Shown here in pieces: positions 42,629-64,000 of a stretch of 64,000 nucleotides of DNA (positions are counted from its first letter, which is position 1; the number at the start of each line of letters is the position of its first letter). The translations under genes were made by a program, and so were the position numbers. The DNA comes from Euglena gracilis (Eukaryota): the NCBI GenBank assembly GCA_039621445.1, contig CP154954.1:22952954-23016953 (forward strand), in the 5' to 3' direction. The notes beneath the pieces are model-generated. The model ran no database searches and was not told the DNA's origin. It saw only the letters and a list, made by a program, of their open reading frames with translations.

Positions 42629-45207
42629 TGACAACAGCCTTTGATGTGGTCAGGAACCTGTGCACGTCAACGTGAGGTTTTGCAAAAAAAAAAAACGTCC
42701 GAGGTGCCCTGACCGACCAATGAGGAAGTGGGGGGAAACATAAACACATTTTGCACCATTTTTATGCATTTTTAGGGGGGAATGGTTTTCTTGCGTTGTC
42801 ACCTGGACATTTTGTTGCTTTTTTGGGTGTTTTTTGAAGGAAAAAAAACTGTTTCGTCAAAAAAAAACCGATTTTTTTTGCAACGAAAGTCACGGGGACA
42901 GGGACAGGCGGGGAAAAAACACAAAGCACTCTGGAAGGCTGAAAAAAATAAATGTCCAAAAGCTATAAAAAAAAAGACACCAGGTGCCCCTCAAAGGATT
43001 AGCCTGGCGTTGCTTTTTTGAAATTTTCTTTCGTTCCAAAAAAATAATCCTCCCTGGCACCCGACCTCGTTCAGGAGGCCATTCGGCGCGCCGCGGAATT
43101 TTTGGCACAATTTTGAGGGGGGATTTTGCAACCATTTCTCAACCTTTCCCTTGCTGCGCCCCTTGAACACTTAAAGAAAGACAGCGGCCGTCACCTTCTT
43201 ACGCTGCAATCGCACCAAGGGTTTCAAATTAAGAACTCAAAAGTTTCAGCCACTTTGCATGGGTCGAAAATTGCTGCATCATATTCCCCCGCCCCCTAGT
43301 CCTTTTCGGGGGAGGGGCAAACCCCCTCCAGTCTAAGACAGGGGTGGGACACCCTACTGCAAAATTTCGTGGCCCGGCGCCTCCCCCCAAAAAATCGGCC
43401 ACTTTTTTTGGGGAAAACAACGTTTTTTTTCCCCAAAAATGCCGGGAGGGGGGCAGCCGGGCCTTTTTCAAGACGCCCCGTGCACCCTTTTGGTTGGTCA
43501 GGACCCCGCCTTGAGCCTTGGCGGTGGTGGGCCGAAACGCTCCGGCCCAGCCCAAGGACGGGGGGAGGACGACCAAACCATGGATTCAGTGACCCACTGG
43601 AGTTGGCTTGCCTCCTTGCTTCGGGGGGAACGACACAAACAATACCCTCAGCTCGCAACCAAAAATGCGGCCGACAGCGTCCCGGCCCAACCGTCCTCAA
43701 AACCCCCACGCACACACTAAGCGAGTCTAAGCACACCGGTTTTTTGTCGAAGTATGCGGCCGTTTTTTTTTGGGGCACCGCGGCTTTTAAAAAAAGTTCT
43801 GACCTCAAAAAACTGTGATCTTTTTCCCTGTTCTGAAACAATCGTTGGATGAGAGAGCCAGCGGACAACAGCCAGGTGGCGCACAGACTGAAGGCAAAGG
43901 CTCTTAAGTCTGTGAGCGGAACCTTTGCTAAATGAACTTCGGCACAAGACGACAAATGCGGCGATTTCTGCGCATATTACTTCCAGTCTCTAAAGAATGG
44001 TAAAAAAAAATGATCCCAAATGACAGAAAATGTGTGCCAAACCCCTCCCCTTTTCTGTTCCCCTTCACTTCACCCAGCAGCACTGGTGGAAACCTTTGTG
44101 ACCAAAGGGAGAAAATGGATTTTGTTTTGGGTTGGTTTTGTTGCTCTGGTTCCTGTAAAGCTCCAAACCAACGCCAAATGGATGTTTTCGAGGTGCAACT
44201 CTGTATTTTTGACGTTTCAGCAAACCTTTTCGGCCTGACCCAGTTGTTTAGGTCATGGTCGACGGGAAAAGTACCACAACCCCCTCATTTGACCCCTTAA
44301 GTGAGCAATTGGGTCTGGGTTTCGTCCTCTCTTAATTTCTGACTCCCCCCCAAACAGGGGGGGTAGGAGCCCCGAAAAATTGCCTGATTTGAGAAAAGAA
44401 TGAAAAAGCTGTGCACTGTCGTTGAACCGCGTTTTCAATAACATAATTTTCAATCCCCCAGATGAATCCCTTTTGAACGGAAACTTTGCCCAAATACTGA
44501 AAAGAGTGGAAACACCATCCTTGGTCCAGAGATGACAGGGAGGCCCCCCACATTTATCAGATTCTCCCAAATCATAAAAATGCACCTTCAAATTTGAGCA
44601 AAAACTTTTTTCTCACTGTTTCACATTCCAGGTTTTTTTTTAACTAGAGGTAATTGCTTGAAAGTGGTGTTCTGCAGTGTGTTAAGATGTTTTGCCCCTA
44701 CTTTAGCACCCTGTGGCCCATGAGTCTATGGTTTTTACCTTTTGTGCATTTTTTTTTGCTTTTGCAATGTTCACCTCGAAAAATGAACAGAAATGTATGG
44801 AAATTATTTCATTCCATTTTTTTTTCTAATTTCATCCCTTGAGTGAATTAATATCCTATTAAGGTGGGGTTCAGGAACATTGAAAAAAACCACCAGCAGT
44901 GTCACTTACCATCCCCCCCCCCTTTATGTACCTCCCCCCGGGAGGCCAAAACCGGGCAGGAGGTACATAATGGGGGGGAGGTACACAATGGGGGGGGGGG
45001 CAAGTTTTTCTTTGGCGGGACATGGGAGAAGGTGGTGCTACCCCCCCCCCATTATGTACCTCCCCCCCCAGGGGGTACACAATGGGGGGGGGGCATGGTA
45101 CAACAAATGTTGGTACAACAAATGTTCGAAACCCAGGAAATGCGGTTCACAAGGAGCAAAGAAATGGGGAATTGGAGGGAGAAGAAATGGCAAACGTTTT
45201 TGAAAGT

Positions 45208-45499
45208 CTATGCAAAGGAAGCAGTCCTCGCATTCTGAATGATTTGAAGGAGTGCTGAAGAAATACAAAGACAACATGATCACAGGACGGAATTGAACCT
45301 GAACCAAGTACAACAAAAAGGAGGACGCCAAGGACAACAGGACCAACAGCGACCTTATCAGCCTTTTTCTTATCCTCTGGGTGAACTTTCTTTCCGATTT
45401 GGCCGTTGTATTTATCAGACCTCTTGGAAATTGTCCTTGGTTTACCAGGCTGAAAGTCAAAATATTGGTTGGCGCATGGAAACAGGACGCCCACACCAT
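45208..45499 (-). CDS. SERP1: Stress-associated ER protein / ribosome-associated membrane protein 4 (RAMP4/SERP1), 66 aa
   Basis: Exons 45497-45499 (ATG), 45299-45449, 45208-45254 with 47- and 44-nt GT-AG introns give MPGKPRTISKRSDKYNGQIGKKVHPEDKKKADKVAVGPVVLGVLLFVVLGSALLQIIQNARTASFA*, carrying the VGP..L....FVV.GSA..QII tail-anchor signature. Confidence 0.92.
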
Positions 45500-45554
45500 T
45501 TCTGTTCAAATTGCGTCGATCCTAATTCATTACGCTAATTCATCACACCAGCCC

Positions 45555-45579
45555 CTTTCTGAGTGTCTATTTTTTTTCG
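45555..45579 (+). other. Genomic copy of the euglenid spliced-leader exon at the 5' end of a retrotransposon
   Basis: CTTTCTGAGTGTCTATTTTTTTTCG matches nt 2-26 of the Euglena gracilis SL as recalled; not followed by a GT SL-intron; 14 nt before the ORF1 ATG. Confidence 0.88.
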
Positions 45580-45593
45580 TCTGCATAACCACC

Positions 45594-46766
45594 ATGGCTG
45601 CAAAGGGGCCGGATGGCCCTCCAGAAGACCCCAAGACTCAAGACAATACACCCCTTGTCAATCAAGCTGCTACCACAACCAACCCTTCAAGTACACCTAC
45701 TGCTGCAGTGGACACTGGACAGTTGGAGCTGCTGGCCAAGATGTTGTTGCCGCTGTTGGTGCCGGTGCTAACCACTGCTGTGGCACAACGACTCACTGCT
45801 GACCGCCCTGTACATAGTGACAGAGAAAGTCAAGACAGCAGCTCACAGAGAAGGAAGAGGACTTGGCAAGAGAGGGAAGAGCATGAAGAGTACCTACAGA
45901 GAAGGTTTGGAAGAGATTACAAGCCCCCATGGCAGAGAGGTCGACCCAGTTATCATATATCTCAACAGAGTTCTCCTCAGCCCCAGCTCCACCAGCAAGT
46001 GAGTCTGGGGCCCCCCTGTACAGCAAGCCCAGCAGTGGGCATTCCACAGTCAGGCCCATCAGTGGGCATTCCAATGAACAGCCCATTCCAATGCCCACCA
46101 GTGGGTAGAAGTCAAGTATGTCCATCTGTCACATCAATCATACAAATGTACATTCCATCACAGACCAACCTTTGGGGTGAACCCCAGCAATCTCAGCAAC
46201 CACTGCAATCAAACTGGAGCAGAGAAGATGACCAGAGGAAGAATTGGACCAGAGAAGAAGAGCAGAGAAGGAGAGAGGCTGAACTCTTCAGAAGCCTCAG
46301 AGCCTTTCTCAGCACAGGCCAGAGTACTCAAGTCCCCCCCCTCCCAACACCATTACACAACCCTGGCCTGCCAGCACCCTTAATCCCAGATGTGGTACTG
46401 GCATCACCATCAGCCTTCCAATGTGCTTTTCTGCCTGCAGCTTTCCCTTTTGTCTCACAAAGTCCCCCCCAAAGAGGGGACAACTCAACACAATACTTTC
46501 ACCCAGTAAAACAAATGGATCAAGAATTTCATCCCAAGGCAACTCCAAATCAAAATGAGTTGGCAAAACAACCCCCCCCCCCAACCCAAAAGAGGAGGAT
46601 CATCAACCCCAGCCAAATGCAACTCCAAAAAATCTCAGCACCAGCCCCCCAATATCAGCCCCCCCTGCAAGAGGGGGGGGGCCAGGCACACCCTTTCGCA
46701 TTTTTAAAATTCCAACAAAACCCACCATGTTTGATGGCACACAGTGGGCCAAACTGGGCACAGTGA
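45594..46766 (+). CDS. Retrotransposon ORF1 (Pro/Gln/Ser-rich, function unknown)
   Basis: First ATG after the SL copy (accaccATGg), 390 codons, overlaps ORF2 in the -1 frame. Confidence 0.7.
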   Translation: MAAKGPDGPPEDPKTQDNTPLVNQAATTTNPSSTPTAAVDTGQLELLAKMLLPLLVPVLTTAVAQRLTADRPVHSDRESQDSSSQRRKRTWQEREEHEEYLQRRFGRDYKPPWQRGRPSYHISQQSSPQPQLHQQVSLGPPCTASPAVGIPQSGPSVGIPMNSPFQCPPVGRSQVCPSVTSIIQMYIPSQTNLWGEPQQSQQPLQSNWSREDDQRKNWTREEEQRRREAELFRSLRAFLSTGQSTQVPPLPTPLHNPGLPAPLIPDVVLASPSAFQCAFLPAAFPFVSQSPPQRGDNSTQYFHPVKQMDQEFHPKATPNQNELAKQPPPPTQKRRIINPSQMQLQKISAPAPQYQPPLQEGGGQAHPFAFLKFQQNPPCLMAHSGPNWAQ

Positions 46767-49700
46767 TCCTGCAGGAGGAACCCAGCCCCTTTCAATGGCA
46801 AGACCCCCCCCAGGCAACAGATTTACCAGCTTCCCCACCCAACACCCCCCTGGAAGGGGTCCCAGTTTGGGAAAAACCAGAGTTTCGGTCCCTCAGGGAA
46901 GAATTTTTTTGGAGAAGGCGCATGAGACAGCAAGCAGGAGGCATTTTATTTCACGAGATGGTCGCCAGAAAACTGGCCAACATTCAGGAAAAGTGGGTCG
47001 ACATTGGCAGAACAGTGGACATTCGGGAGTCACAAAAAATGGTGCACACAGACATGAAACTCACGTTGCCATTGGCAGCGCCAAACGTTGTGCAACCGCC
47101 CCCCCCACCAAAAAAGAACCTCATCCTGGAACGGATCAGAATCGCCCAGATTCTTCATCAATACCGACCAGAGGAACAACGTGAGGAAGGAGTGGACATG
47201 TCGCACATAGAAAAAGTACGCCGAGCTATCGCACAAAAAATCAAACAAAAAGTGCCTGCAGCTGAAGCAGTCTGCCGCCCGAGGACAAAGAAGAGGCTGA
47301 CACCCTCCCGAGAACCAACCCTGCCCATTGCCTGGCGATACTGCCCAAGAATTTGGCAGATGGATGACATGCCCAGACCGTTACAGTTTGCGTGTGAGGT
47401 TGGATTGGCTGATCGTCTTTCCCCGTCTGTATGGACTGCCACCGATCTTGATGACTCAAATGACTCCCTGTCGGACTATTACTCTTGTGCTGGCACAAAA
47501 AAATTCCGCATGGCAGAAACAGCCGGCAACATACACCCCTGCTCTGCAAGCCCACACGGGGGGAAGAAGCCGGAAGATGCATATCTGAAGACGGGGCGAG
47601 GTGATTCTCTGACAACAATGGGTGATGTGGAAACCAATCCAGGCCCGCTGACGGTATTTAATGGACCCTGTGGTGAAGTCATGGATTTATTGGACCAACT
47701 TGTTGCCATGAACATGACTGATTTCTTTCGGATCAAGGCCGAACTACCGTTGCGGCAAGGCCCCGATGGCTCCTCCCAATCACTTCTTCCCAAAGCTACA
47801 TACTGGCTGAAATGCACTTTGTGTGACATTGAAACCATCACTGCCTCGGCAGGTTGGTGCTTGCACCACAGGGAAACCTGCCCTGTTTTTTCAGCCACAG
47901 TATATCCATCTACTGAGACAGCCAAAGTACACTCCATAACAAGCCGAGGATACACGGCAGAACAAACCCGGGAAAAGTTTTCAGAAGGACACCAGCCGAC
48001 TGGAAGGGGGGAACGAATCACCACCCATGGTGACGTCCAAACACAACCAGGACCCATCTACTTCCGTCTGGCTACCATGGAAAGACCAACAATCCCTGTC
48101 TCCAGGGGACTTCAAGAAAACTTCATCCGGCACAGATTGCTGGCGAGCCTTCAAGAGGTGGATGCAGAACTTCAAAGTTTCCGAGACGCCTTCCTTTCCG
48201 ATGTCCTGGTTGAGGACACTACCGTCTATGAGCTCACCGAATGTTGGGAAGTTTTGAGAGGAGTTCTGTTTGTGCTCATAGGGCTATGGCCACATCGACC
48301 ACCACGTCACGACTCCCCATCGAGTGTACATGCCATTATGTGGTTGCTAACTTGTTTATGGTCCGAAGTATGCAACATCGGCGAGGCCTTTCACCTCTAC
48401 CTGCCCCCTATTCGCCTAATGACACTACCCAACGTTCTCCGGCCGAGAGGCACTTTCCCCAGAGTACCTCCAACGGAGCCCTCCTCGTCCGACCTCTCCC
48501 CATTGAATGCACACACCGTTGATATCCTGGACATCATGGCCTTCTTACGTCCGACAAGATCAGTAGTTTCAGTTGACCGTCATGTCCGGAGGGCACGACG
48601 GACAGCACAAAGACAACCAAACTACCAACGAGGTGACCAACACGGTGATATAAGCCCTAACGACGCTGTCATAGCCGAGAGGCCCAGACACCAAGATGTC
48701 ACACTTTGTGGTGACGTTCAGCTCGAGCCGGGACCTATTCACCGCACACCCCCACGTGAAGGACCCCTATCCCTGCGACCTAGCACCCAGCCCCATTGCC
48801 GACGACCAACTTGCACTCTGGCCCCAGGGCCTTTTAAGTTGTCCAATGTGGCCCCAGGGCACGCCAACCATGTACGGCAACTGATTGACCAGGAAAAAAC
48901 GCGGTATGGGTACAGTCCCCCCAGCTGTGGCAGGGGTAAAAGCCTTGCCAGTTGTGGCGACATTGAAAGCAACCCAGGTCCCACAGAAACCCGCCCTCCA
49001 CAGCAGGAAGACGTTGAAATGGCCTCAGCCGCACAAACCTCTGCTGTGCCGCCGACGGAGCGACCTCTCCTTGGATCTTGGTTTCCAATGCACTCGACGC
49101 CGCTGTTCTCGCCTACTTTGTCCCAGGCTGTAATGCCGTTTCCCAGTTTGAACGGGGGCCCCGGGGCACCCGCAGCTGAGCAAATCATGGTCATTGACGA
49201 ACTAGAGTCCCGGGTGCGCTCAGTGATTTCCGAAATTCACGGGCATGCGCCGCAGGGCCAGGGCTTGACTGAGAATTTTGTGCCGTCCTTACCACAAGGG
49301 CAAGAGCAAGAGTGCCAAAATGGTCGAAGGCCGCAGCCCCCCGTGGCCCCAGCACCAGCGCAATCCTCGACGAACAATGATACGGTGCAAGTCACTCCCA
49401 CTCCCTTCTCGCAACCTTGCCCACCACTGCAGCCATCTTGGGAAGAAATTTCCCAAGACAGTCGAGGCACGTTGGTCCATATCCCACGGGGAGCGTTGCG
49501 AAACGTAGGGCTCGCCTTTTGCAGCACCCTCAGTCGCTTTGTGTCCAAGCCAGGATGGGAGACCCTACACGCACTTTGGTGCTTCCCAAAAGCTGTGCTT
49601 GCTCCATTGAAGCGCAGCGGGAAAAGCCATTGGGCTGCAGTTGGACGGAAAATTACTGAGAGAGCCAATGCCTACCTCAACCGGTCCACAGAAGATTCGT

Positions 49701-52090
49701 GGGATGAGACTCGCCAAATTCGCGATGCACAAAACCCAAAGAAGAGAACACGAAGTCAGACAAAAAATTTCGAGGCAGAAAGCCAAGAAAGATTGTGCAA
49801 CCGTGTTCAAAGCCTTGTCAATCATGGGGCGGTCAGTAAAGCCTGCCGCATGCTGACTTCTGATGGAATCCAAGATGCAGATGACCCGCTAATCTTGGAA
49901 CGGTTGGCTGCCTTGCACCCTCCTGAACCCCAACCTGGAAGGCAAAATCTGCCTCCGGACTTCCCTCGCCTCGAATTCGATCTCAGTGAAGAAGCAACCA
50001 GGGAGCGCCTAATTGAAATACGGAAAGCAGTCATGTCTTTCCCGAAGGAATCCTCACCGGGACCGTCTGGACTTCGTCCAGATCATCTCAAAGACATGCT
50101 CTCTGATCCCCTGGGGACACAATCTGAACAACTCCTCACAATTTTGGACCAATTCATCCGAACATGTTTGACAAACGGAATTCACAACTCAGTGGCATGG
50201 ATTTTCGCTGGTGCCCGTTTGACTCCTCTTCGAAAACCCTGCAATCCAAGCGAAAACTTTGATGAGCTTGGCAATGCCAACCCCATTCCTGACCCAAAGA
50301 AGGATGGCACGCGACCAATTGCAGCTGGGGAATGCCTGCGTCGATTGGTGGGCAAATATTTGATGAGGCACCCCAAAATCAGGGACCGCCTTAAAGAACT
50401 GCAGCCACTACAATGTGGTGTAGGGGTCCAGGGGGCATGTGAACTCATTGCTATGGGACTGCAGCAAGAAGTAAATCACCTGCACATGCAACAGGACAGC
50501 ACCTGGGCTTTGTTACAGGTAGATTTCAGCAATGCTTTTAATTGCGTAAAAAGAAAGACAGTCCTTGCTGAAGTGGCTAAACGCTGCCCGGAGGCGTACG
50601 TTTGGTTCGAGAGTTGCTACGCCGAACACAGCCCGCTCTTTTGTGGGTCATCACACCTTCGGAGTGCCTCTGGTGTACAACAAGGGGACCCTTGTGGCCC
50701 AGCCGGATTCGCCTTGGCGTTGCAATCCCTCGTTGAGTCCTTGCAAGACGTTGTGCCACTCCAATTGTGGTATTTGGATGATGGACACATCCTGGGAACC
50801 CTCCCACAATTACATGCAGCAATTACAGAAATTCAACGACAGGGGACGCTACTAGGCATACACCTCAACACAAAAAAATGCCGCCTGTGGGGCCCTGCAG
50901 CAACAGAAGCCAATCGTGCTGAAATGCCGCAAAACAGCCCACTTCGTGCAGTCCCAATCGTGAACTACTCCCCCGATTCTGGTATACGGGCCCTGGGAAT
51001 CCCGGTATGCTGTCCACAAAGCGGAGGCTTTGCGGGGGAAGTGTGGGCTGAACGTGCAACAAGTGTGCAGAAAGCTTGCCGGGCCCTTTTGAACCTGCCG
51101 CAGGCCCATATTCAGTTCTGCCTCTTACGAACCTGCCTAGATGCATGCAAAGTTAATGACCTCATGCGTGCAACAGAACTGGGGCAGGCAAATGACGCAT
51201 GTGCTTTGTTGACCAAAGAAATCAGGAACACAATGAGCAACATTGTTGGATCCCCCATCGATGACAACCAATGGGCTCAGGCCACCCTACCTGTGCGTCA
51301 TGGCGGACTCGGACTTCGGGACCCATCACGGGAACGTCTCCCAGCACGGATATCCGGCATTGTGACGTTTGTCAGCAATGGCAGACGCACCCTGGGTCTG
51401 GCAGACCGAGGAGTACCGAAAGACACTGTTGAGTGCCTGTCCTCTGCCAACTCCATCCTCGAAGGAACTCCCCCAACGCAAGCATGGGCCGCGGATGTAT
51501 CCCTCTTGAACGAAGCCCAAAGCCCTCACATTCAACAGAAGTGGTGGGGTGAATGCTTTGCGAAACAACGACAAAAGGTATTATCCTCCAACCTTCACGG
51601 TCAAGACGCCGTCCGGTTCGCAAGCCAACAGCGGCCCCACGCAATGGCCTGGGCTTCTGTCACACCATCCTCTGGACTGAAAACATTGGTTGCTTCTGCC
51701 GAATTCAAAGGATTTCTAAAGTGGGCACTGGGAGCACCAGTTTGCCCTCCAACGGGATTAACGTGCCCACGCTGCACCAAGCCAATGGACAACCTGGGTA
51801 ATCACCTTGTCCTCTCTCCGTTGACCGGAGGAGGTGCACCACCCGGCATCCGTCAAGACAATACCGCAAGAGTGCGTGCCGCACTTGCCCCTCTGGGCCA
51901 TCCGATCCGTGGGCTGGACTGGAAACACTTGGGGCCCTTGTGGCCCAGTATAGGGAGGGGGGTCGGCACGCCGTGGCGAGGTTTCCGGCTAGGGGGGGGG
52001 GGAGGGGGGGTTTTGGCGTGGCGAGGGGGTCCCGGATGGGGGGGGGGAGGGGTGCGCGGGGGCCAAGAAAATTTTCTTTGGCGGGCCTGA
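46727..52090 (+). CDS. Retrotransposon ORF2 polyprotein: four 2A-like peptides plus reverse transcriptase; last ~90 codons are read-through into foreign DNA
   Basis: 1787-aa ORF; RT motifs at ~50300-50900; homology stops at NHLV (~51810). Confidence 0.9.
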   Translation: MFDGTQWAKLGTVILQEEPSPFQWQDPPQATDLPASPPNTPLEGVPVWEKPEFRSLREEFFWRRRMRQQAGGILFHEMVARKLANIQEKWVDIGRTVDIRESQKMVHTDMKLTLPLAAPNVVQPPPPPKKNLILERIRIAQILHQYRPEEQREEGVDMSHIEKVRRAIAQKIKQKVPAAEAVCRPRTKKRLTPSREPTLPIAWRYCPRIWQMDDMPRPLQFACEVGLADRLSPSVWTATDLDDSNDSLSDYYSCAGTKKFRMAETAGNIHPCSASPHGGKKPEDAYLKTGRGDSLTTMGDVETNPGPLTVFNGPCGEVMDLLDQLVAMNMTDFFRIKAELPLRQGPDGSSQSLLPKATYWLKCTLCDIETITASAGWCLHHRETCPVFSATVYPSTETAKVHSITSRGYTAEQTREKFSEGHQPTGRGERITTHGDVQTQPGPIYFRLATMERPTIPVSRGLQENFIRHRLLASLQEVDAELQSFRDAFLSDVLVEDTTVYELTECWEVLRGVLFVLIGLWPHRPPRHDSPSSVHAIMWLLTCLWSEVCNIGEAFHLYLPPIRLMTLPNVLRPRGTFPRVPPTEPSSSDLSPLNAHTVDILDIMAFLRPTRSVVSVDRHVRRARRTAQRQPNYQRGDQHGDISPNDAVIAERPRHQDVTLCGDVQLEPGPIHRTPPREGPLSLRPSTQPHCRRPTCTLAPGPFKLSNVAPGHANHVRQLIDQEKTRYGYSPPSCGRGKSLASCGDIESNPGPTETRPPQQEDVEMASAAQTSAVPPTERPLLGSWFPMHSTPLFSPTLSQAVMPFPSLNGGPGAPAAEQIMVIDELESRVRSVISEIHGHAPQGQGLTENFVPSLPQGQEQECQNGRRPQPPVAPAPAQSSTNNDTVQVTPTPFSQPCPPLQPSWEEISQDSRGTLVHIPRGALRNVGLAFCSTLSRFVSKPGWETLHALWCFPKAVLAPLKRSGKSHWAAVGRKITERANAYLNRSTEDSWDETRQIRDAQNPKKRTRSQTKNFEAESQERLCNRVQSLVNHGAVSKACRMLTSDGIQDADDPLILERLAALHPPEPQPGRQNLPPDFPRLEFDLSEEATRERLIEIRKAVMSFPKESSPGPSGLRPDHLKDMLSDPLGTQSEQLLTILDQFIRTCLTNGIHNSVAWIFAGARLTPLRKPCNPSENFDELGNANPIPDPKKDGTRPIAAGECLRRLVGKYLMRHPKIRDRLKELQPLQCGVGVQGACELIAMGLQQEVNHLHMQQDSTWALLQVDFSNAFNCVKRKTVLAEVAKRCPEAYVWFESCYAEHSPLFCGSSHLRSASGVQQGDPCGPAGFALALQSLVESLQDVVPLQLWYLDDGHILGTLPQLHAAITEIQRQGTLLGIHLNTKKCRLWGPAATEANRAEMPQNSPLRAVPIVNYSPDSGIRALGIPVCCPQSGGFAGEVWAERATSVQKACRALLNLPQAHIQFCLLRTCLDACKVNDLMRATELGQANDACALLTKEIRNTMSNIVGSPIDDNQWAQATLPVRHGGLGLRDPSRERLPARISGIVTFVSNGRRTLGLADRGVPKDTVECLSSANSILEGTPPTQAWAADVSLLNEAQSPHIQQKWWGECFAKQRQKVLSSNLHGQDAVRFASQQRPHAMAWASVTPSSGLKTLVASAEFKGFLKWALGAPVCPPTGLTCPRCTKPMDNLGNHLVLSPLTGGGAPPGIRQDNTARVRAALAPLGHPIRGLDWKHLGPLWPSIGRGVGTPWRGFRLGGGGGGVLAWRGGPGWGGGGVRGGQENFLWRA

Positions 52091-54010
52091 TATGGCGTGG
52101 TGAGGGGGTCTGAAAAGGGGGGGGAGGGGGGTAAAATGGCGTGGCGATGGGGGTCGGTGAGGGGGGGGGAGGGGTGTGCCGATCCCCCGTAGTTAGCCGC
52201 AGTTGCGAGGCTACTGTGCGCATGATGCAGACAGACATGGATTGCCAAAAATGCTCCACTCTCTCGGCTTTGCTTTCCCTGATTGTGGTATTTTCGGCAT
52301 AAAGTCGACAGATGTGATGGAGCAACAGGTTGCCTTCACTGGTCATGCCTCCCCACGGGTGAAGGACCAATGCTTTGAAGTCCCATCGGACTTTCTCACA
52401 TGCCACTGCATATTTATTGAGTTTGGCTTGTTCTTCACGTAGCAACATTTTCTTGGCAGAGTCTGGTGAGGGGCGGGGTTCAGAAGGTCGCAATGGCCAA
52501 TGGGTGCACAATAATGAGATCAATAGCCAAGGGTGGTCCACCCCGCCAGGTGGCCAGGTGTAAAAGAGCATGTCACCAGGTCAGGAGCCATCCGGCAGTT
52601 GGGCTTCTTTAGAGGAGGTAATACCTGCCTCTCGTGCTGTGGCAAGTAACCAGTCTTGGAGTATGGTGTGGCGTTGAGTTGGCGTTGAGTGGCCTTGCAG
52701 GTAACTGCATGGTCTCCCCATGCATCCAAGCATGCTGTACATTGGGCACAAGTACTCCCCACCTCATTGGGGTTGAGCAGTGTCCAAGCCACCACTGGAG
52801 TGCCAGGCGATGATCAACATGTTCCATCTGGGTTCCAAGAGCTTGAAAAGGGCGGCAATTCAGCCAAGCCCCTGAGTTGGCAGTCTGTAAGCTTTTGCGA
52901 CACAGGTCTCGGTGGCTGCCAGTTTGCTTCCATTCCTTGTATCTCTGGGCATTCATGCAATCTTGCCAAAATTGTTGTCGAGTTTCTTGCAGGCTCGCTC
53001 TCTGGATGGAGGAGGGCGTCTCAAACCAGCCCTTCAGTGGCTGGACCTCTTGCCCAAGTCGGTGTCGAAGACTTGCAAGGCGAACGTTGAAGTCAGGCGG
53101 CAGAATTCTCATATTGTCACAAGGAATGGCGCACAGGTAAGTGGTTTCATGGCGCACATAACTCGCCATACAGGAAACCCTGGCTACCTCTTGGTAATCC
53201 AATGGAGATTTGATTCCAAGTCCAGCCAATTTGGTTGGGAGAAAGGTCTGGCGTGCTTGGTCTTCCGGTAGGGAGCGTCCAATAATGTTTTCCACCGCCT
53301 CCAGAAGATCTTGATGGATGTGTCTCAAGGTGTCTTGAACATGTGTAGTGTCAGTGGTTCTTAGGAGGCTAGGCGCCGCTCGGGGGGGGGGGGTCCGGGA
53401 CCCCCCCCCCCTCCCCCATCAGGACAATGTTTTCAACGTCTGGGACCTAGATGAGGAACATGCCGAAGAGTGTGCAGTGAGACCAATTGCTGCAGGAGAG
53501 ACCCTCATACGCCTCATTGGAAAGTGTGCAATGTCCCTTTCTGAAACCAAACTGGCGTCCCAAAAACTGCGGCCGTTCCAACTGGGGGTTCATCTTCCTC
53601 CATGGCTTTATCCGATGTTGTTGTTTTCTTCGTTGGAATCAAATTTGCTGCTCCAAGGAGTTGTACAACAGTTTGTGGTAGTTTTCCTTCCAAGGCCTGC
53701 TGTACAAAGATGTCTAGCTGATGGAGGAGCTCCGTGGCATTCGGGTTACCTGGCAGGATCATTTGTTGAAGGTGACTGGGTCGGAGGCCAGAAGGCCGCA
53801 ACTGTTAGTGCTCCGTCTTCAATGGCCCGAAACACCGACTGCCTCGTTTGGTCAGTGAGGCGGTTTGTTTTGTTTTGCAGACGTTGTGATTTTCTGTCCA
53901 TTCTAGTGTCGTCCTCACAAAGTTTGAACTGGTCAGGTGGGATCTCCAGAAATGAAATTGAAGCGGAAATGATTGCTTTGGTGTTACGTACTTCATGCAT
54001 TTTCCCTCCC
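51812..54010 (-). mobile_element. Degenerate CRE-like non-LTR retrotransposon (opposite strand), deleted and rearranged
   Basis: Minus-strand LPTKLAGLG, CAQC...HAVTC, the RLE region (PGDM, EQAKLNKY, LHPWGG) and PSGLRPSHL; RPIAAGE segment inverted at ~53420-53590; MITE at ~51945-52190. Confidence 0.8.
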
Positions 54011-54987
54011 CTGGGTGGGCGTGGCAGTACGGCTGGGGCCTCGAACCGGCGTTCTGGAACACGGCTTCACGCCCGAACCGGCGTTCTGGACACAGTTGTT
54101 GAAACCGTGGATTAGGGGCTCTGGCTTCACGCCCGAACCGGCGTTCAAGGAATAAAGGCCAATTTCGCCCTAAATACCCAGTTTCTGAACATTTTTGGGC
54201 ATTTTTGGGATCCTTTGGGCTCATGGCCATGTCGATCGGCCGATTGAAGTTTTCATCCGTCTGATGCCAGGTTACCCATCAATCGAAAGGTTTTTTTTCA
54301 GAATTACGATTTGGAAAAAAATTTTGGTTGGACCACCCCTAGGTTTTTTCAGAATCACGGTTGGGAAATTTTGGTTGGACCCCCCCCAGATTTTTTCAGA
54401 TTTGCAATGCCGAATTTTCGGTTGGACCCCGCTGGTTTTTTTTCCAGAATTATGGTTGGGATTTGATCCCCCCTTTTTTCAGAATTCCGGTTCAGAAATT
54501 TTGGCTGGGTTTCTTCACAAACACGGTTGAAAAAAAAATTGGCTGGAGCCCCCCCTAGGGTTTTTCAGAAGTACGGTTGGGAAATTTTGGCTGGACCCCC
54601 CCGGGAATTTTTCAAAATTGTTGGGAAATGTTAAGTACAGTTGGGAAATTTTGGCCCCCCTGGGTGTTTTCAAAATTGGTTGGACCCTCCCGGTTTGTCA
54701 ACAAAAGTTGAACTTTAAAAGACGAGGCAGGAATCGAACCCACGACCACACGGTCATAGAACACACACGGAGAACTGTCAATCACCACCCCCCCGGGGGG
54801 TCGGCACATCACATTTGCCCTCAAAACTCCCAGCACTGAAAAACCGACTTTGTTCGGCCTTTGAAAAACGGCCTTTGCCTATACTCCACCACTGAGCTAT
54901 TCGCTTTTTGGTGGATTTCACATTTCCGACACATTTTCTTTTAAACACTAAAACAAACTCTTCTGAAAAAGGAAAAATGTCCAAAAA

Positions 54988-55058
54988 GGGGGCGACCGGG
55001 GATTGAACCCGGGACCGTAGAGTTGTTACCCTTATGCTCTACCACTAAGGTATTCGCC
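54988..55058 (-). pseudogene. tRNA-like unit (anticodon position AAC, Val-like), degenerate
   Basis: A-box-like TTAGTGG, GGTTCAATCC T-arm, downstream T5; imperfect stems. Confidence 0.55.
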
Positions 55059-55124
55059 TTCTGACCACACATTCCTTTTTGACACAATACCAGACTCTTC
55101 TGAAAAAAAGGAAAAAGTCCAAAA

Positions 55125-55195
55125 GGGGGCGAACCGGAACCGAACCCGGGACCATACGGTTATTAGCCCTATGCTCTACCACTGAGCTATTCGCC
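55125..55195 (-). pseudogene. tRNA-like unit (anticodon AAT, Ile-like), degenerate
   Basis: GGCGAAT/GTTCGCC acceptor stem, TAGCTCAGTGGTAGAGC D-arm, CTAATAA loop, damaged T-arm, downstream T4. Confidence 0.6.
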
Positions 55196-55244
55196 TTCTG
55201 GGTGGCTACAAACTCTGGTGGAAAAAAGGGAAAATGTCCAAAAA

Positions 55245-55316
55245 GGGGGACAACCGGGGATTGAACCCGGGACTGTAGGGTTGTAGGCCATATGCTCTAC
55301 CACTGAGCTATTCGCC
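55245..55316 (-). pseudogene. tRNA-like unit (anticodon position TAC, Val-like), degenerate
   Basis: Intact A and B boxes, downstream T5, poor acceptor and anticodon stems. Confidence 0.55.
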
Positions 55317-55519
55317 ATTTTAAGTAAAGTAAAAATTTTAGTTGACGAGGGCTCTCACCCTTACGATTTTTTGTTGTTTTTTTTGTGGATTTTGATTTTT
55401 TTTGGGTTGGTTTGCGAAAGTATCACACATGGACCAATTAATCGTTAATCGTCTGGGACCCCCCGATTAATCGCAATTAATCGTTCGACTTCCCAAAACG
55501 ATTAATTGGCACAACCCTA

Positions 55520-57105
55520 CTTCTACCTACCACCTATTCACCTAATGACACTGCCAAACATTTTCCGGCCAAGAGGCACTTTCCCCAGAGCACCTCCAAT
55601 GGATCCCCCCTCTTCCTACCCCTCCCCAATGAACGTACATAGCGTTGATATCATGGAGATCATGGCCTAGTTACGTCCCACAAGACCAGTTACCAAGGCT
55701 GGATTGAGGTATTGAGGTTGAGGTCGAGGTTGAGGTTGAGGTTGAGGTTGAGGTTGAGGTTGAGGTTTTCCAACCTCCATCTTTCCTCAATGTCACCTCA
55801 AAGCCAAAATCCAAAGGAAAATGATTCAACAACAAAAAGCTTTGAACAAAGTGTTTCAAAGAGAGGCAAATTACATGGATTTTTTCAAAAATTGGATAGT
55901 TGGTCACTTATCTCAAGTTTTAAATCACCAACCCACAATAACTGGGCCAATTGACCGCCACATCCGGAGGGCACGACGGACAGCGCAAAGACGTCTAAAC
56001 TATCAACGAGATGGCATACGCCCCGACAACCCAGCGATAGCCATGCGGCCCACACATCAAGATGTCACACTTTGTGGCGACGTTAAACTCAAGCCAGGGC
56101 CTGTTCCTCGGATGACCATGCTTGAAGGACCCCTATCCCCACGGTCCACCATCCTGCCTAGTTGCCAACGTCCAAAACACCCACCTCTTTGCCTCAGTGG
56201 TGACATTGAAGAAAACCCAGGGCCAGACGATGATTCAATGGGGGTGTATCCCCCGCGACCCCCCCCCCCGCGACCCCCCCGCGACCCACACATGGAGGGT
56301 TTCCGCATCCCAGTAGGAGCCAAAAAAGGGCACCTAATTAGGAATTTGCACCCAAATTAGGAATCAAAATTTCCTAAAAATGTGTGACAAATTCCTAATT
56401 GGAGCTATTTTTGGACCCAAAAGTTCTAAAAATAGGTCCCATGTGACGTACGTGTGACCCGTCAAAACTTCCACGTTCCCCCCGCGACCCCCCCCGCGAC
56501 CCCCCCGCGACCCCCCCCCCCGCGACTCATACACCCCCAATGCTTCTAGAAGGCGGACAACAAGTGCAATTACATATGGATTTTCCAAGTAGCAGTGCAC
56601 CTACCGATCTGATGCCGGATACATACCGTTGCTTGAATGCCTGCCCGTTCTTTCCCGCCTGCCCGTTTCAGACCGCGGAAGAAGCGACTGAAACATCATG
56701 TGGACCGCATCCACGTGTCTAGAGGACAAGTCCCTGACAGATTGTGGATGATGTCCCTGGGTGTCCGGGTACGTGTCACCTGCCTGCGACTTGTTCCCAC
56801 AGGATCAGCCTGCAAAGCCTCCACTTGTCAGTCAGCTCCCCCTTTAGATAATCCCTATCAATGGACGCCACCAACAATTTGTCAGGTCCCGCCGTCGTTG
56901 ATCCCGTTCAGCCCCAGGCAGCCCCGTTGCATGAGCCATCTCTCTCTGACCAGCGTTGCACCCACCAGATTTTGCAATTATTCATGACAAAACACAGCAA
57001 CCTCCGTTTCATTCCGCACCAAGCCCTGCCAGCTGTAACGGCTTCCTTCGCAAATTTGTTGAAGCAGTTCAATGGCTTACCAAACACTTACAACCTTTTG
57101 AAACA
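55520..57105 (+). mobile_element. Degenerate fragments of CRE-like ORF2 N-terminal region, with two 2A-like motifs and Zn-finger-like remnants
   Basis: 55520-55685 and 55950-56160 align by eye to 48398-48800; GDVKLKPGP, GDIEENPGP; IPHQAL..V.ASF is homologous to IPRGAL..V.LAF. Confidence 0.75.
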
Positions 57106-57602
57106 GTGTATTGGGGCTCTGGCTTCATCTGGACGCCGGTTCGGCGCAGAAATTTCTGCGCCGAACCGGTGTCCAGAACGCCGGTTCGGGCGGGAAAACG
57201 GCGTCCTGGGGACCGAAAATGAAAGTGCCAAAAAGTGTCCAAAATGGTTTGTAGACATGAGGCAATCATATCTGAGCACTTTTTGGGGGGTATTTGGCTA
57301 GAAATTGGGGTATTTTGTGCAACAATTTCCATTTGGCCAAATCTGGGGTTTTTCTGAAATAGAATACCATGCAGCAGGGCTGAAATCTAAGGCCATCTAA
57401 AACCCTTGAGAAGGGTTATTCATCAAGGGGCAACATGGCAGGTGAACAGTGGATTTTGGAATTTGCGAAAAGGGTCCAAAAATCGTAATTCTGAAAAAAC
57501 CCAAGAGGTCCAGCTAAAATTTCCTAACCATAATTCTGAAAAACCCAGGGTATGAACGCCAAGAGAAGGAAAAACATTCAAAATATGACGCCACCTGTGG
57601 GA

Positions 57603-57868
57603 GGATGGGATGGACCTGCATTCCATTTGTTGTTGACTGCTATGGCGGCTTAGGCCAAGAAGCGCTAACCTTAATGTCAACACTGATGAAGCTTCTCCTC
57701 GGTCAACAAGATGCATGGTCAAAACGCAAAACTGAAGCCGACACATGGCAACTTCTATCAATCACTGTTGCGCGAGAGATCGCGCGACAAGTAATCTGGG
57801 GACGGTATGCAGGCAACGACACAGATCCAGACGTAACCTACACCATACACCAACCGTATTGTCTGTAA
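57603..57868 (+). mobile_element. RLE C-terminal fragment of a CRE-like element
   Basis: GWTCIPFVVDCYGGLGQEA...WQLLSITVAREIARQV, paralogous to 60045-60290. Confidence 0.75.
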
Positions 57869-58759
57869 AGAAGACCATTACGACCCCTAGACCCAGAACA
57901 AACAATTGTCCTTAAACCATTCACAACTTGTCAAAAAAGTAAACAACGGTACCCAACCATCAGCAACCTGTGTCCCACATTGACAAGAGAAGTGGCCGTC
58001 AATTGGCTTGTGGAACAGCGGTGGAGCCATCTGGAACGGTGGATCCCACCACCCATTGCCCATTTGAGACGGAGTAAGCAATTTGACCACAGGGTCGAAG
58101 ACTCCATGACACACCAACCGTACGCATAACCAACCACAAGACTAAAAAGACGTCCAAACCCTTACCACACTGAAAACAGAGCCTTCCCTGCGCCAACTCC
58201 CCTAAACCCAAACCTAAACTTGTCGCTGCCACAGCCTCAACACACAACAGTCCCCATGGCCATTCTATTGAACCTTCCCTGCCGCTGTACACTTTCCTCT
58301 CACACTCGCTATCTCCCCTCCGTACTGTGCCCCTCACCGCCCTTCTTCTACTTCACCTTCGACTCTCGCCCCTCCCACAGTCCCCATTGCATCTGCGGAC
58401 AATTTGATGTAAATATCTCACCCGCCATGAACTTCGGCTCGGACTGTCCCTCCTAGGCCGCTGGTTCAAATTCCACCAGCCCCTTGCCCCTCCGTTTTCC
58501 CTGCTACCAAGACTGCTCGACTTTACACGCCCTCACCTGTACCTCACCTGTTCCCTATGCGCCACTGCCTGTACCAAGCCTCTCCAAAGTCCCCACTGCA
58601 TCTGCGGACAATTTGATGTAAATATCTCACCTGCCATGAACTTCGGCTCGGAGTGTCCCTCCTAGGCCGCGTTTCCAAAAAAGATCACCGCCAAAAAAAA
58701 AACCTCGTGTCAAACTCACACCAGCACACGGAAAAGAACAAGCGAGGCTGCCACGCTTG

Positions 58760-60290
58760 GGTTGGCCGTGAACCCCGCAAAATGTCGATTGTGGGGACCA
58801 GCGTTCACATCAACAGAAGGTGTCCCTTGCATTCTCCCTGGCACGCCACACGACAGCCCCTTACATCAAATACCACTGACTGCCTTTGTTGCTGGTTCTG
58901 GTCTGAAAGTTCTGGGGGTCCCTGTTCACCACCCCCAAGATGACCGCTTCTGTGAAGAAGTTTGGAGTAAGCGCATTGAAGACATCCGACGTTCTTGCAC
59001 AGTACTTCAGCACTTACCTCAATCGCATGTGCAATTCACCTTGCTTCGTTTTTGTTTATCCGCTTGCAAAGTGAATGACCTCTTGCGCGCCTGCAAAATC
59101 TCTTCTGCAACAGCGACATGCAAGACATTGTCGGGAATTCTTCAGGAAACATTCAGTGGCATGGTCGGCTCCCCTTGCACCCCAGAAGAATGGTTGCAAG
59201 TTTCCCTGGCCATCACATGTGGAGGACGGGGAATCTCCGAACCACTATTTCAACGTGTGCCTGCCAAATTGTCTCAAGTGGTGGTCTCTTGACGAAGAGC
59301 TCTGTCTTGGGCTTGCCCGCTGCCATGGACATCCTTCCCAAGGACGCCGACGATTGTTTAGGGACAGCCCTCAACGAACTTGGTCAAATGGCCTTACTGC
59401 CATAATGGGCCAGTGACAAAAACTTGATCCCTCAGGCACAGTCTCCACACAATTCACAACGTTGGTGGAATCAGCAGAGCATGCTTGCCCGCAGGAAAAC
59501 ACTTCGGGACACATTGAATGGACCTGCTGCTGTACGCTTTGCAAGCCAATGCCAACCACATGCTATGGCGTGGGCCGCTTTGACCCCATCTCAAGGACTC
59601 CACACCCTGTTACCCACGGCTGAATTCCGCTGCACACTTCGTTGGTCCCTCGGAATGACTCTCACACCAATGGAATCCGATCCCAACCTCTGTCCCAAAT
59701 GCTTTGGGCCATCAGATTTTCTCGGACACCACCTCGTTTGCTACAAATCAAACTTCATTACCCGGCGGCACGGGGTTGTCCAAGATTTTCTGACAACCAC
59801 AACATAGAAGGCAGGATTTACAGCCCGTAAGGAACAACGAGCTGATGGCCGTTCCCGGCCTGGAGACATCTTCATTCCTCGCTTGGACACTGATGGACCA
59901 GTTGCAGTGGATGTGACAATCCGCCACACCCTTGTGCAAAGTCATCCACTGCGGAGTGCAGAGAACCTTTCACAATGGTAAACACATTAGGAGGCTGAAA
60001 AGCATGCCAAATATGATGCAACATGCCAACGACTGGGCTGGCGGTTGATGCCATTTGTCATGGATTGCTACGGGGGCATGGGACAAGAAGCGCGCTCCTT
60101 GATGGCCACCCTCCTTAAGGCCCTTCTGGGGCAGTGGGAAGGGTGGCAACGGCGGGCCGCAGAAGCAGACATTTGGCAAGGCCTGTCCTTCACACTAATC
60201 AGAGAAATCAGTAGGCAGCTCGTTTGGAGCTTGTATTCTTCCAAAGATGAGATCACCCTGTCTTCCGCCCACTCACCATATTCTATCTGA
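58760..60290 (+). mobile_element. 5'-truncated CRE-like non-LTR copy (RT thumb, CCHC knuckle, RLE) with frameshifts and stops
   Basis: KCRLWGP, CKVNDLLRA, CPKC...HHLVC...RH, RPGDI, VDVT, EKHAKY, DCYGG. Confidence 0.85.
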
Positions 60291-62327: not shown

Positions 62328-62897
62328 TCATTCCCACTTCTCCGTGAACCACTGGTACCGCTGTCGACGATACCTCCTCTTGCACGCCTCGGAGAGTCCA
62401 CGTTCATCTCCACTTCTCCTGCGGGCTCGGGACGATGCTCCTTCATCTCCTGGGGGCATGTCCTTCAGGGTCTCTTCCTGGAATCTTCGGTACTGGAGCA
62501 AGCACGCCCGGACTGGCCAACGCAATGGCCCAGTCGGCTGCATATGGCCCGCCTGCTGGTCCCAGATCTCGAAGAACCGGGTTCCTTCCTCGAAGATGAT
62601 GAACTTCACTGTCATCTTCTGCAGCATTGGCCACCATGTTGTTGTACGCCACTCTGGTGCAATCAGCACCATCTCCTGCACCTGGTCCGCGATGATCTTG
62701 AGGATAACTTGATTCATCAACGTCCACGGTGGGTTGGCCCATATCCTTTCTCTTGACCATGTCTTCGCAAATGCATTGTCTTCCTTCGTCCAGAACTTGG
62801 GGAATCTTGCATTTTCCCATGATGCAAATGCTTCTTGCACACTTCCTTGCTGAATGTTGAACTTGTCCAGGATCAGGTCGATGAATTCCCAGCGCAC
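62328..62897 (-). CDS. Retroelement-type (DIRS-like) DNA N6-adenine methyltransferase domain
   Basis: EAFAS..N, NAF...W, WANPPW (motif IV NPPW), VLIAPEW....WWP.L. Confidence 0.8.
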   Translation of the reverse strand: MRWEFIDLILDKFNIQQGSVQEAFASWENARFPKFWTKEDNAFAKTWSRERIWANPPWTLMNQVILKIIADQVQEMVLIAPEWRTTTWWPMLQKMTVKFIIFEEGTRFFEIWDQQAGHMQPTGPLRWPVRACLLQYRRFQEETLKDMPPGDEGASSRARRRSGDERGLSEACKRRYRRQRYQWFTEKWE

Positions 62898-62918
62898 GGC
62901 GTACTCCTCGGAGATGTA

Positions 62919-63314
62919 CTACCTTTTGATTCTTCTTCCCCTTCCACTTGGTCTTGGCAGGGTCTCTGGCTCTTCCACCTCGTAGTACTCCTCCTCTGCA
63001 GCTGGTCCTGATTCTGGATCTCCTGGATGTGGTTGATTCTCCATCACCACATTTCTCCTCCTGAATGGCTGCAATGGCACTTCCGGTTCTTCAGCTGCAC
63101 CTTCATAGTTTGGAGCTGGACTTCTTGATTCTTCTTCTTCTTCTTGTCCATCCCACACTGTCAATGCAGATCTCCAGCCCTCTTCTGGAAGTCGGACAAT
63201 CCATCTGCTCCAGCTCCAATCTGTCACTTCCTGCACTTTCAAGTGATCTTCTTCCGGCCTCCAACTGACATTCATCCTTCTGGGCTTGGCATTCTGGTAT
63301 TCTGACTCTGGCAT
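62919..63314 (-). CDS. Acidic ORF in frame with the methyltransferase, separated by one TAG
   Basis: Same reading frame: ...RIKR*YISEEYAVRWEF... Confidence 0.45.
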   Translation of the reverse strand: MPESEYQNAKPRRMNVSWRPEEDHLKVQEVTDWSWSRWIVRLPEEGWRSALTVWDGQEEEEESRSPAPNYEGAAEEPEVPLQPFRRRNVVMENQPHPGDPESGPAAEEEYYEVEEPETLPRPSGRGRRIKR

Positions 63315-64000
63315 TCTGGTCTTCTGGTAGTTTGGTTACTGAACACTTCCGTTTTCTGTGTGTCTCTTTGGGGTGTCTTTTCCCTTTTTCCCTTGATATT
63401 TGAATGCACAACACTTTGCCAGCTTGATAGGATGAAGTGTTCCGGCTTGGAACCACCTACAGAGAGGCAGTCCAATAAACTAAAATTAGGAAGTTCCGCA
63501 AAGCGGAAGATTCCGCTGTTGGTCTTTTTTTGGCCCCGCCCGGCGCCACACCCCAGGGGCCGCCGCCAACACTTCCTACCGAGGCGCCCGGCCTCGCCTG
63601 CCTTCGGCTAACCTCGGAGGCGGGAGCGGGGGGCGATGCGCACCTCATCGGCACAGTGAACGACAAACAAACGTCAGGGCGGTTCGGGTATACGGAGGGC
63701 AGGGGTGTGGCCTTGGCCTCGGCCTTGGCGTTTTGTGTTTGGTGCCCGGGGGCGTTTTGTGTTTGGCGCCCCTCGTGTGTCGCCTCGCGCGCCACAGGAG
63801 CCTGGTCGGGGGCTGGCGTTGGTCCCCGGGCGGTCTACTGGCAGGCCGGCCGCAGGCTCCTGTGGGCGCCTTGGGAGGGGGGTGGAACTCCTCCGGGCTC
63901 TGGGCGGGGGCCGCTGTCCTGCTGGGTGGCTTGGCAGCCGCGCCGCGCCGACCTGCAGGCTGGGTGCAGAGCCCGGAGCGTTGAGCCTTTCGGGGGGGCT

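Follow-up and report, generated by a model that had tools for sequence, protein, structure and literature searches.

Serial 2A-like peptides, two canonical and two probably decayed, in a spliced-leader-bearing non-LTR retrotransposon of the restriction-like endonuclease type from Euglena gracilis

Peptides of the 2A (StopGo) kind, which cause ribosomal skipping, are known from about 50 retrotransposons without long terminal repeats (non-LTR elements), all of the type that encodes an apurinic/apyrimidinic endonuclease (APE) and each with one 2A, which in all but one of these elements falls within ORF2p's N-terminal region (Odon et al. 2013, PMC3708506, as far as the accessible text of that paper goes). 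Here we describe an element from Euglena gracilis that has no APE, that belongs by its sequence to the restriction-like endonuclease (RLE) type, and that carries four 2A-like peptides within one and the same open reading frame (ORF). It lies in a stretch of 64,000 nucleotides (GenBank assembly GCA_039621445.1, contig CP154954.1, positions 22,952,954 to 23,016,953, forward strand), which we call the window and whose numbering we use throughout. Like the window element, the APE-type L1Tc/Ingi, CR1, L2, Rex1 and Crack elements place a class A 2A in-frame upstream of the enzymatic part, and the accessible portions of their descriptions also give decayed 2A variants beside active ones and propose that the 2A frees an N-terminal function. 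These elements combine an APE with one 2A each, whereas the window element is APE-less and RLE-type and its clade has up to four 2As set between modules.

Several StopGo peptides partition one ORF in multi-2A RNA viruses (picornavirus supergroup 4 and iflavirus-like; PMC11512398 and bioRxiv 2026.09.24.754024, in excerpt), and the viral peptides given in those excerpts are of the same class as those of the window clade, T2A-like GRG..LL.CGDVExNPGP. The window element differs from these viruses in being chromosomal, in pairing a reverse transcriptase (RT) with an RLE, in having very many genomic copies, and in having no capsid or RNA polymerase. With the R2, CRE/SLACS/CZAR, NeSL/Utopia, R4 and Hero clades the window clade shares one long ORF in which the RT is followed by a CCHC motif and a PD..D..K nuclease; compared with these R2-like clades, the window element has no N-terminal zinc-finger/Myb DNA-binding region detectable by Pfam, and, to judge from its copy number and from flanks that differ, its family inserts at more than one target. 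In the accessible parts of the literature we found no 2A described in the R2, CRE, NeSL-Utopia, R4 or Hero clades. Among protists and algae, Dualen/RandI elements and ORF2p-like proteins fused to deubiquitinases (Haematococcus, Symbiodinium; PMC13405545) have 2A-like peptides beside accessory domains, but Dualen encodes both APE and RLE, the accessory domains in that group are deubiquitinases or pentatricopeptide repeats, and the portion of that source at hand describes no serial 2A-module-2A order. Dinoflagellate retrogenes (PMC6050394, PMC12014239, in part) have a DNA-encoded leader at the 5' end that marks a trans-spliced mRNA template, as we propose here, with the difference that here the retrotransposon itself is tagged, in a euglenid, and by one complete leader rather than by truncated tandem relics.

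Eukaryotic genes with up to three 2As have been reported (Rao et al. 2025, available text), and a survey assigns 330 class A contigs to RT elements, which are for the most part non-LTR-like and whose active 2As show a 'distributed arrangement' (bioRxiv 2026.09.24.754024, available text). Surveys of this kind count many RT-linked 2As, but their available text leaves the architecture of the elements undescribed. Within such partial texts we found no serial 2As in an RLE-type clade, no cassette order of SLBP-like, zinc and Dam modules, and no leader-capped Euglena retrotransposon, and the supplements of the surveys may list members of any of these. What appears to be new, judging from the sequences, is a defined RLE-type clade with up to four putative 2As per ORF joining functional modules. 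Such a clade would place StopGo use further back, in the lineages taken to be the oldest among non-LTR elements. It provides intact as well as decayed 2A sites within one active family, a natural series useful for testing sequence rules, and it suggests how elements may exchange accessory modules with no need of a new promoter or ORF.

We read the window copy, with fair though not full confidence, as complete at its 5' end and truncated at its 3' end, with a StopGo polyprotein split at sites 1 and 4 and with former 2As at sites 2 and 3. The ORF at 46727..52090 (+, 1787 codons) holds all four peptides in-frame with coding sequence on both sides, and a regular-expression scan of its translation with the pattern D(V/I)xxxPGP places them as follows.

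47591..47647, + strand: site 1, TGRGDSLTTMGDVETNPGP, canonical class A and T2A-like; core DVETNPGP at aa 300-307, nt 47624-47647
47999-48055, + strand: site 2, TGRGERITTHGDVQTQPGP, most likely a decayed 2A, at the end of segment B; core DVQTQPGP at aa 436-443, nt 48032-48055
48680-48736, + strand: site 3, RPRHQDVTLCGDVQLEPGP, degenerate 2A, at the end of segment C; core DVQLEPGP at aa 663-670, nt 48713-48736
48926-48982, + strand: site 4, CGRGKSLASCGDIESNPGP, canonical 2A directly before the RT module, at the end of segment D; core DIESNPGP at aa 745-752, nt 48959-48982

Sites 1 and 4 satisfy the class A motif D(V/I)ExNPGP, which is split between its last Gly and Pro, and sites 2 and 3 fail it: in both, the Glu of position 14 and the Asn of position 16 are replaced. 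A chance origin of the four motifs is negligible: shuffling the residues of the ORF 20000 times never produced the strict motif D[VI]ExNPGP and produced GD[VI]xxxPGP in 7 of the 20000 shuffles, and a six-frame translation of the whole window contains only six matches to the latter, namely the four sites and two more in a diverged second copy. An earlier note on this DNA had placed the four peptides at these cores in one frame, and both the 19-residue peptides and the ORF scan agree with it; the start that it gave, 47590, lies one base before the first Thr codon (47591), and the span 47590-48982 is out of frame. Its product sizes of 306, 136, 227 and 82 aa are correct as counted from the ATG at 46727, and the Zn-like motif C..C-x14-H...C that it had seen in the 136-aa piece is present at aa 363-385.

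We evaluated how far the peptides extend among related elements with a protein search using ORF2 aa 1050-1700, which gave 247 matches; the counts given next concern the best 120 of these 247, and the best 32 among them (30-51% identity) come from short ENA, JGI and Logan contigs. The motif D[VI]ExNPGP is present in 24 of the 120, and 18 of those 24 are among the closest 32. By an ungapped estimate, the N-terminus reaches the place of site 4 in 20 of the closest 32, the other 12 being cut short, and 18 of these 20 relatives have one to four strict 2As (the two without are P0007 and P0009), with the last 2A sitting near the site-4 place. Together with the window element, the closest 32 form a 33-row clade with an SH-like support of 99 in a FastTree tree of 121 RT-RLE rows and 743 columns, which is unrooted and made by a quick method. 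Outside this clade, only two small groups among the matches listed have a 2A, one each, and the strict motif was found in 2 of 80 more distant metagenome-contig loci (25-39% identity to the clade profile); a search of IMG/VR with the RT-RLE profile returned 0 loci.

Among 38 clade proteins, 49 strict 2As are spread over 23, and their 48 unique 20-mers comprise 35 of the T2A-like form GRG..LL(S/T)CGD(V/I)ExNPGP, 10 with an upstream Trp and 3 others; in the N-terminal parts of different elements these peptides of about 20 aa are almost the sole alignable stretch. We interpret serial 2As that serve as module joints to be ancestral to the clade of the window element. The conservation of canonical 2As across the clade strongly backs 2A-mediated polyprotein expression, which the earlier note had proposed; its split into five products fares differently, as set out below. 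Some 2As of the relatives P0022, P0028 and P0136 are changed at Glu14 alone (DVAPNPGP, DIASNPGP, DVQPNPGP) or at Val (GDAESNPGP) while keeping Asn, and so form a natural series of variants.

Measured against this clade, the four window sites fall into two kinds. Sites 1 and 4 match 17 of the 20 positions of the GRG-type consensus, and in P0001 and P0002 it is the last 2A that aligns with site 4; site 3 matches 10 of 20. In each of the six relatives whose sequence extends to site 2, D(V/I)ExNPG aligns with it (6/6). Because of this alignment with canonical 2As, site 2 is most likely a decayed relic of one; its Leu pair, Glu14 and Asn16 have all been altered. At the Leu pair the clade has LL (Leu in 31/35 and 26/35 of the GRG-type peptides); in the window, L is followed by T or A at sites 1 and 4, and I by T at site 2. 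The variant DVQTQPGP recurs at site 2 of P0129, which is an independent copy with 94% identity, and the change therefore belongs to the family rather than to one copy. At site 3 the second copy in the window has K and K in place of Q and E (DVKLKPGP) within a nearly unchanged peptide, at a mean DNA identity of 73%.

Published mutagenesis bears directly on these changes. In the accessible part of a mutational scan, E14H in P2A was the only substitution of D12, E14 or N16 to reach the threshold for activity, and scores at the NPGP positions were under 0.2 (bioRxiv 2026.09.24.754024); N16A abolishes StopGo, and N16 bonds with the peptidyl-transferase centre (PMC12846837, in part). Mainly because Asn is lost, E-to-Q alone being partly tolerated, we consider it highly probable that sites 2 and 3 no longer skip.

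The earlier note had instead taken all four peptides to be active StopGo signals, the variants being perhaps weak, tunable or euglenid-specific, with five products as the outcome. Some observations lean that way, and they weigh against our reading together with two that concern the canonical sites. Site 2 keeps GDV...PGP and the upstream GRG, and its variant, common to P0129 as well, may mean some retained role; the site 3 peptide is better kept between the diverged copies than its surroundings and nearly invariant except at positions 14 and 16, which could likewise mean a retained role; E-to-Q alone left some activity in the 2A of foot-and-mouth disease virus (PMC3708506, available text); and the family is young and abundant, so the source copies probably had these variants. 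At sites 1 and 4 a single Leu stands where the clade has LL, which leaves the predicted skipping efficiency uncertain, and P0129 has PGL at site 1, so not every copy keeps that site. Against four active sites, however, Asn16 is replaced by Q or E, a position at which the scans, in their accessible parts, tolerate no substitution and N16A is inactive (bioRxiv 2026.09.24.754024, PMC12846837); the Leu pair is lost as well at site 2; and, although the 49 strict clade 2As have Asn by definition, the looser pattern [DGE][VIL]xxxPGP gave no further Asn-less motif in the relatives. We regard activity at all four sites as very improbable: a three-part split fits better than five products, and we found no support for euglenid-specific skip signals. 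A bolder version, in which a virus-like RLE clade carries interchangeable 2A-joined cassettes and keeps the Asn-less variants as attenuated skip or pause signals, is also unlikely; if true, DVQTQPGP and DVQLEPGP would set the ratio of fused to separated products.

The type of the element follows from its enzymatic part, for which these features are relevant.

50294..50890, + strand: RT domain (Pfam RVT_1), with WYLDDG at 50768-50785
46727..51811, + strand: ORF2, with homology to relatives over 1695 codons; unrelated G-rich sequence keeps its frame open to 52090
51764..51811, + strand: first half of the RLE-opening CCHC motif (CPRC...H); homology to relatives and to other copies ends at 51810/51811

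RVT_1 is the sole Pfam family in the ORF at E up to 0.1 (aa 1190-1388, E 1.1e-12), and its YxDD box is intact (WYLDDG, aa 1348-1353). Pfam gave no APE (Exo_endo_phos) domain in the ORF or in the 19 relatives scanned, in keeping with the APE-less, RT-encoding element of the earlier note, and the self-comparison of the window gave no LTRs, that is, no direct repeat pair around 45.5-51.8 kb. The C-termini of relatives have a CCHC motif that leads into RH, PGD/PAD, a stretch with D(I/V)T, and K..KY, which is the layout of a PD..D..K restriction-like endonuclease, and the full set of CCHC and nuclease motifs is present in relatives P0001, P0002, P0006, P0020, P0024 and P0032 as well as in the window fragments 59406-60290 and 57518-57868. 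A profile of eleven relatives that consist of RT-RLE only, searched against PDB, has R2 as its nearest structures (E 1.7e-21 and 2.8e-21; R2Bm 6.2e-10) and matches LINE-1 ORF2p far more weakly (E 6.7e-06); a phmmer search of PDB with relative P0001 reached SLBP only and not R2, for which the profile search was required. Because there is an RT without an APE, because the relatives have CCHC/PD..D..K tails, and because R2 is nearest in the profile search, we assign the element to the APE-less, RLE-type non-LTR retrotransposons. For the CRE-like placement suggested in the earlier note, the only hints are two distant relatives auto-named 'SLACS' by NCBI, and these fall outside the 33-row 2A clade.

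The catalytic part of the nuclease is missing from the window copy. The alignment of every relative stops by nt 51811, which corresponds to residue 1659 of 1849 in P0001, and contig pieces of other copies (runs X1, X13 and X20, aligned to window 45000-52300) depart from the window at 51810 and encode the missing Cys and RR(H). Since the alignments end there and the other copies carry the continuation, the copy is cut at 51811 with loss of the RLE catalytic part and of its 3' junction, the cut having been made by another repeat that adjoins in inverted orientation. The RT-RLE that the earlier note had given as the last product is therefore present here as regards the RT and absent as regards the catalytic part of the RLE. 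G-rich runs at 51950-52060, directly past the break point, prolong the ORF to 52090, so that it looks about 90 codons too long.

We then turn to what the 2As separate, the segments of the window copy downstream of site 1 being these.

47648..48055, + strand: segment B, 136 aa, module X, with C363, C366, H381 and C385 (nt 47813-47881); ends in site 2
48056..48736, + strand: segment C, 227 aa, no detectable relatives; ends in site 3
48737..48982, + strand: segment D, 82 aa; ends in site 4, before the RT module

In relative P0001 the order is an SLBP_RNA_bind domain (aa 40-101), a 2A, a Cys-rich piece, a 2A, a Dam-like module (NPPF), a 2A and RT-RLE; P0002 is arranged likewise, and in P0006 an SLBP-like domain lies between the second and third 2A. 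The SLBP-like module also matches solved SLBP structures (PDB, E 4e-06). A scan of 1.84 billion representative proteins with ORF2 aa 1-752 matched eight proteins, and P0130-P0136 are built from 2A-X-2A cassettes. In an eight-sequence alignment of segment B, P39, C56, C59, H74, C78 and the GRG are invariant, and module X is predicted to be a C2HC zinc module. Its AlphaFold model has an alpha-beta-beta-beta-alpha core (mean predicted local distance difference test score 69.4, with blocks at 81-93 and residues 10-90 mostly at 70-93). For this fold, Foldseek against PDB gave nothing at E up to 0.001 and only scattered rows of double-stranded RNA-binding domains and zinc ribbons at E of about 1-3, the VIA wide comparison reached a best Z of 4.6 with no fold match standing out, and the best ESM Atlas scores for segments B and C, 0.82 and 0.79, were uninformative.

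The other segments are more private. Pfam gave no match on segments A-D, and no relatives were detected for segments A, C and D or for ORF1. Segments B-D had no copies among proteins of 30-274 aa, had P0129 as their only one among proteins of 275-877 aa, and gave 0 loci in the JGI metagenome contigs. An SLBP hidden Markov model (HMM) built from the clade reached a best E of 0.09 against the six-frame window, which gives no SLBP-like module in this copy, and the clade Dam HMM matched a minus-strand fragment of the window only. Structure prediction and HMM searches of the inter-2A segments, which the earlier note had listed as a further check, have thus yielded one conserved C2HC module, X in segment B, and no detectable relatives of A, C and D. 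Retrotransposons carrying DAM domains, those of E. gracilis included, are described in a 2026 preprint, the accessible part of which makes no mention of 2A.

The arrangement of modules also bears on whether the canonical and variant peptides act mainly as attenuators or stalling signals that lower the yield of the downstream RT-RLE. Most retrotransposon 2A-like peptides lowered protein abundance in one study (70% of ORF1p and 59% of ORF2p cases; PMC13405545, available text), and highly active 2As were present in only 43 of 580 RT-associated contigs in another (bioRxiv 2026.09.24.754024, available text). The clade peptides are, however, very close to the strict class A consensus, and they lie exactly between folded modules, as separation needs and attenuation does not, and we consider a mainly attenuating role unlikely.

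At the 5' edge of the repeat the window copy carries a second signature, with the following features.

45554..45579, + strand: spliced-leader (SL) sequence at the repeat's 5' edge, 25/26 bases of the E. gracilis SL
45594..46766, + strand: ORF1, Pro/Gln-rich, 390 codons, from the first ATG after the leader
46572..46582, + strand: C11 homopolymer, where ORF1 in frame 0 overlaps the frame of the 2As, which is -1 and open from 46559

The SL sequence of Euglena gracilis is given in PMC6242988 and, as a primer, in PMC5654406 (both in part). Its 24-base core occurs once in the window, with 0 occurrences expected by chance, and it coincides with the repeat's 5' edge at about 45555, from which the contigs of other copies match, unlike the letters before. 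The leader is complete to its last base and is followed by 14 nt and then the first ATG, at 45594, in the context ACCACCATGG; no SL-intron-like GT comes after it, and Rfam gave no SL RNA or 5S gene. The leader also marks the host as a euglenid. The simplest reading is that the leader is a copy of a trans-spliced mRNA that was used as retrotransposition template, because it is complete, because neither an intron-like GT nor an SL or 5S gene is present, and because the flank of another copy differs. Elements of the CRE clade (CRE1/2, SLACS, CZAR) insert site-specifically inside SL RNA genes. The complete leader here looks like a copied trans-spliced mRNA rather than such an insertion, and would indicate how a euglenid retrotransposon can rely on trans-splicing.

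The first product is accordingly not simply the 306 aa of the earlier note: the element begins upstream, with the leader at 45554-45579 and the ATG at 45594, and ORF1 meets the 2A frame at C11. ORF1 has a contig word depth as high as the rest of the element, no Pfam match, and no similarity to the modules of relatives. Two bases are missing at 46572 in 33 of a depth of 40.7 in X13 (1 contig) and in 766 of 11032 in X1 (2 contigs), and with the C run two bases shorter ORF1 and the 2A-bearing frame would join as one ORF. Seven heptamers of the slippery type X XXY YYZ lie in-frame in the ORF overlap; most are homopolymer runs, and U UUA AAA at 46703 is one of the seven. A programmed -1 frameshift has no structural support, since folding of the 121 nt downstream is not better than that of shuffled sequence (z +0.98).

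The family is young and has a very high copy number. On 45000-52300 we count 12566 X1 contig pieces, 3556 of them at least 99% alike (flanking repeats included), and the summed word depth is 5e4 to 2.5e5 across the element against 253 in the bin 45244-45487. Among the best 40 of 501 letter differences, none falls in any of the four 2A cores. These counts bear on the possibility that the motifs are inherited relics without a present role and that the copies are dead. Such a view would explain why the window copy is truncated, why half of the four motifs are degenerate and why site 1 of P0129 is broken, but a frame of 1695 codons is open with its YLDD box intact, thousands of contig pieces are nearly identical, sites 1 and 4 are canonical, and the counterpart of site 4 is canonical in the diverged second copy; we hold a family of dead copies to be improbable. 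In run X20, a leaf-litter metatranscriptome, 24 contig pieces are 95-99% alike to the element, which is evidence of a close relative of the host in the litter and, weakly and uncertainly, of transcription.

From these observations we propose how the element may be expressed. Its RNA would be trans-spliced, with the SL copied into new insertions, and translation would begin at the ATG at 45594 and reach the long 2A frame directly in copies with the C run two bases shorter and otherwise by another route. At sites 1 and 4 the ribosome would free the nascent chain after NPG and resume from Pro, yielding an N-terminal protein, a 445-aa B-C-D protein with the zinc module, and an RT-RLE that starts with Pro. 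Segments B, C and D would be made mostly as one 445-aa protein, a fusion that would follow from the loss of Glu14 and Asn16 at sites 2 and 3. Upstream products would be at least as abundant as the enzyme, which suits RNA-binding or structural partners. The sequence shows directly the motifs with their frame and conservation, the homology, the truncation and the leader; from it we infer the skipping itself, the inactivity of sites 2 and 3 and the coupling of ORF1 to ORF2. Three further points tell against this scheme: most X1 contigs have the C11 run of the window, and two separate frames may therefore be the usual arrangement; the letter differences considered are the best 40 of 501, and rarer variants within the four cores may have escaped notice; and the RNA runs are contigs of uncertain kind, which do not establish transcription of the element.

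Downstream of the cut, the window holds further pieces of related elements.

52197..53795, - strand: RT C-terminus and RLE from a more distant RLE-type element, an inverted fragment with 24-31% identity to relatives; abuts the cut end
55518..56225, + strand: second, diverged copy fragment, with counterparts of sites 3 and 4
57536..57868, + strand: RLE C-terminal fragment of a further copy, by homology to relatives
58702..60290, + strand: another copy's RT C-terminus with its complete CCHC/RLE tail, interrupted by frame breaks, by homology to relatives
62328..62918, - strand: Dam-like N6-adenine methyltransferase fragment with an NPPW motif (Pfam Dam E 6.6e-11; clade Dam-module HMM E 3.6e-21)

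In the second copy the site 3 counterpart DVKLKPGP lies at 56076-56102 and the site 4 counterpart, the canonical DIEENPGP, at 56199-56225. The Dam-like fragment is homologous to the Dam-like module that is set between two 2As in relatives, and a weak SLBP-like signal (E 0.09) lies at 62922-63335, on the same strand and just upstream of it. The 3' quarter of the window (51812-53800 on the minus strand; 55518-56290, 57536-57868 and 58702-60290 on the plus strand) consists of nested truncated pieces of at least four further RLE-type elements, all from the same broad group. Direct repeats at 54929-55316 contain two minus-strand tRNA-like Rfam matches (55126-55196 and 55252-55312) and may be tRNA-derived short repeats.

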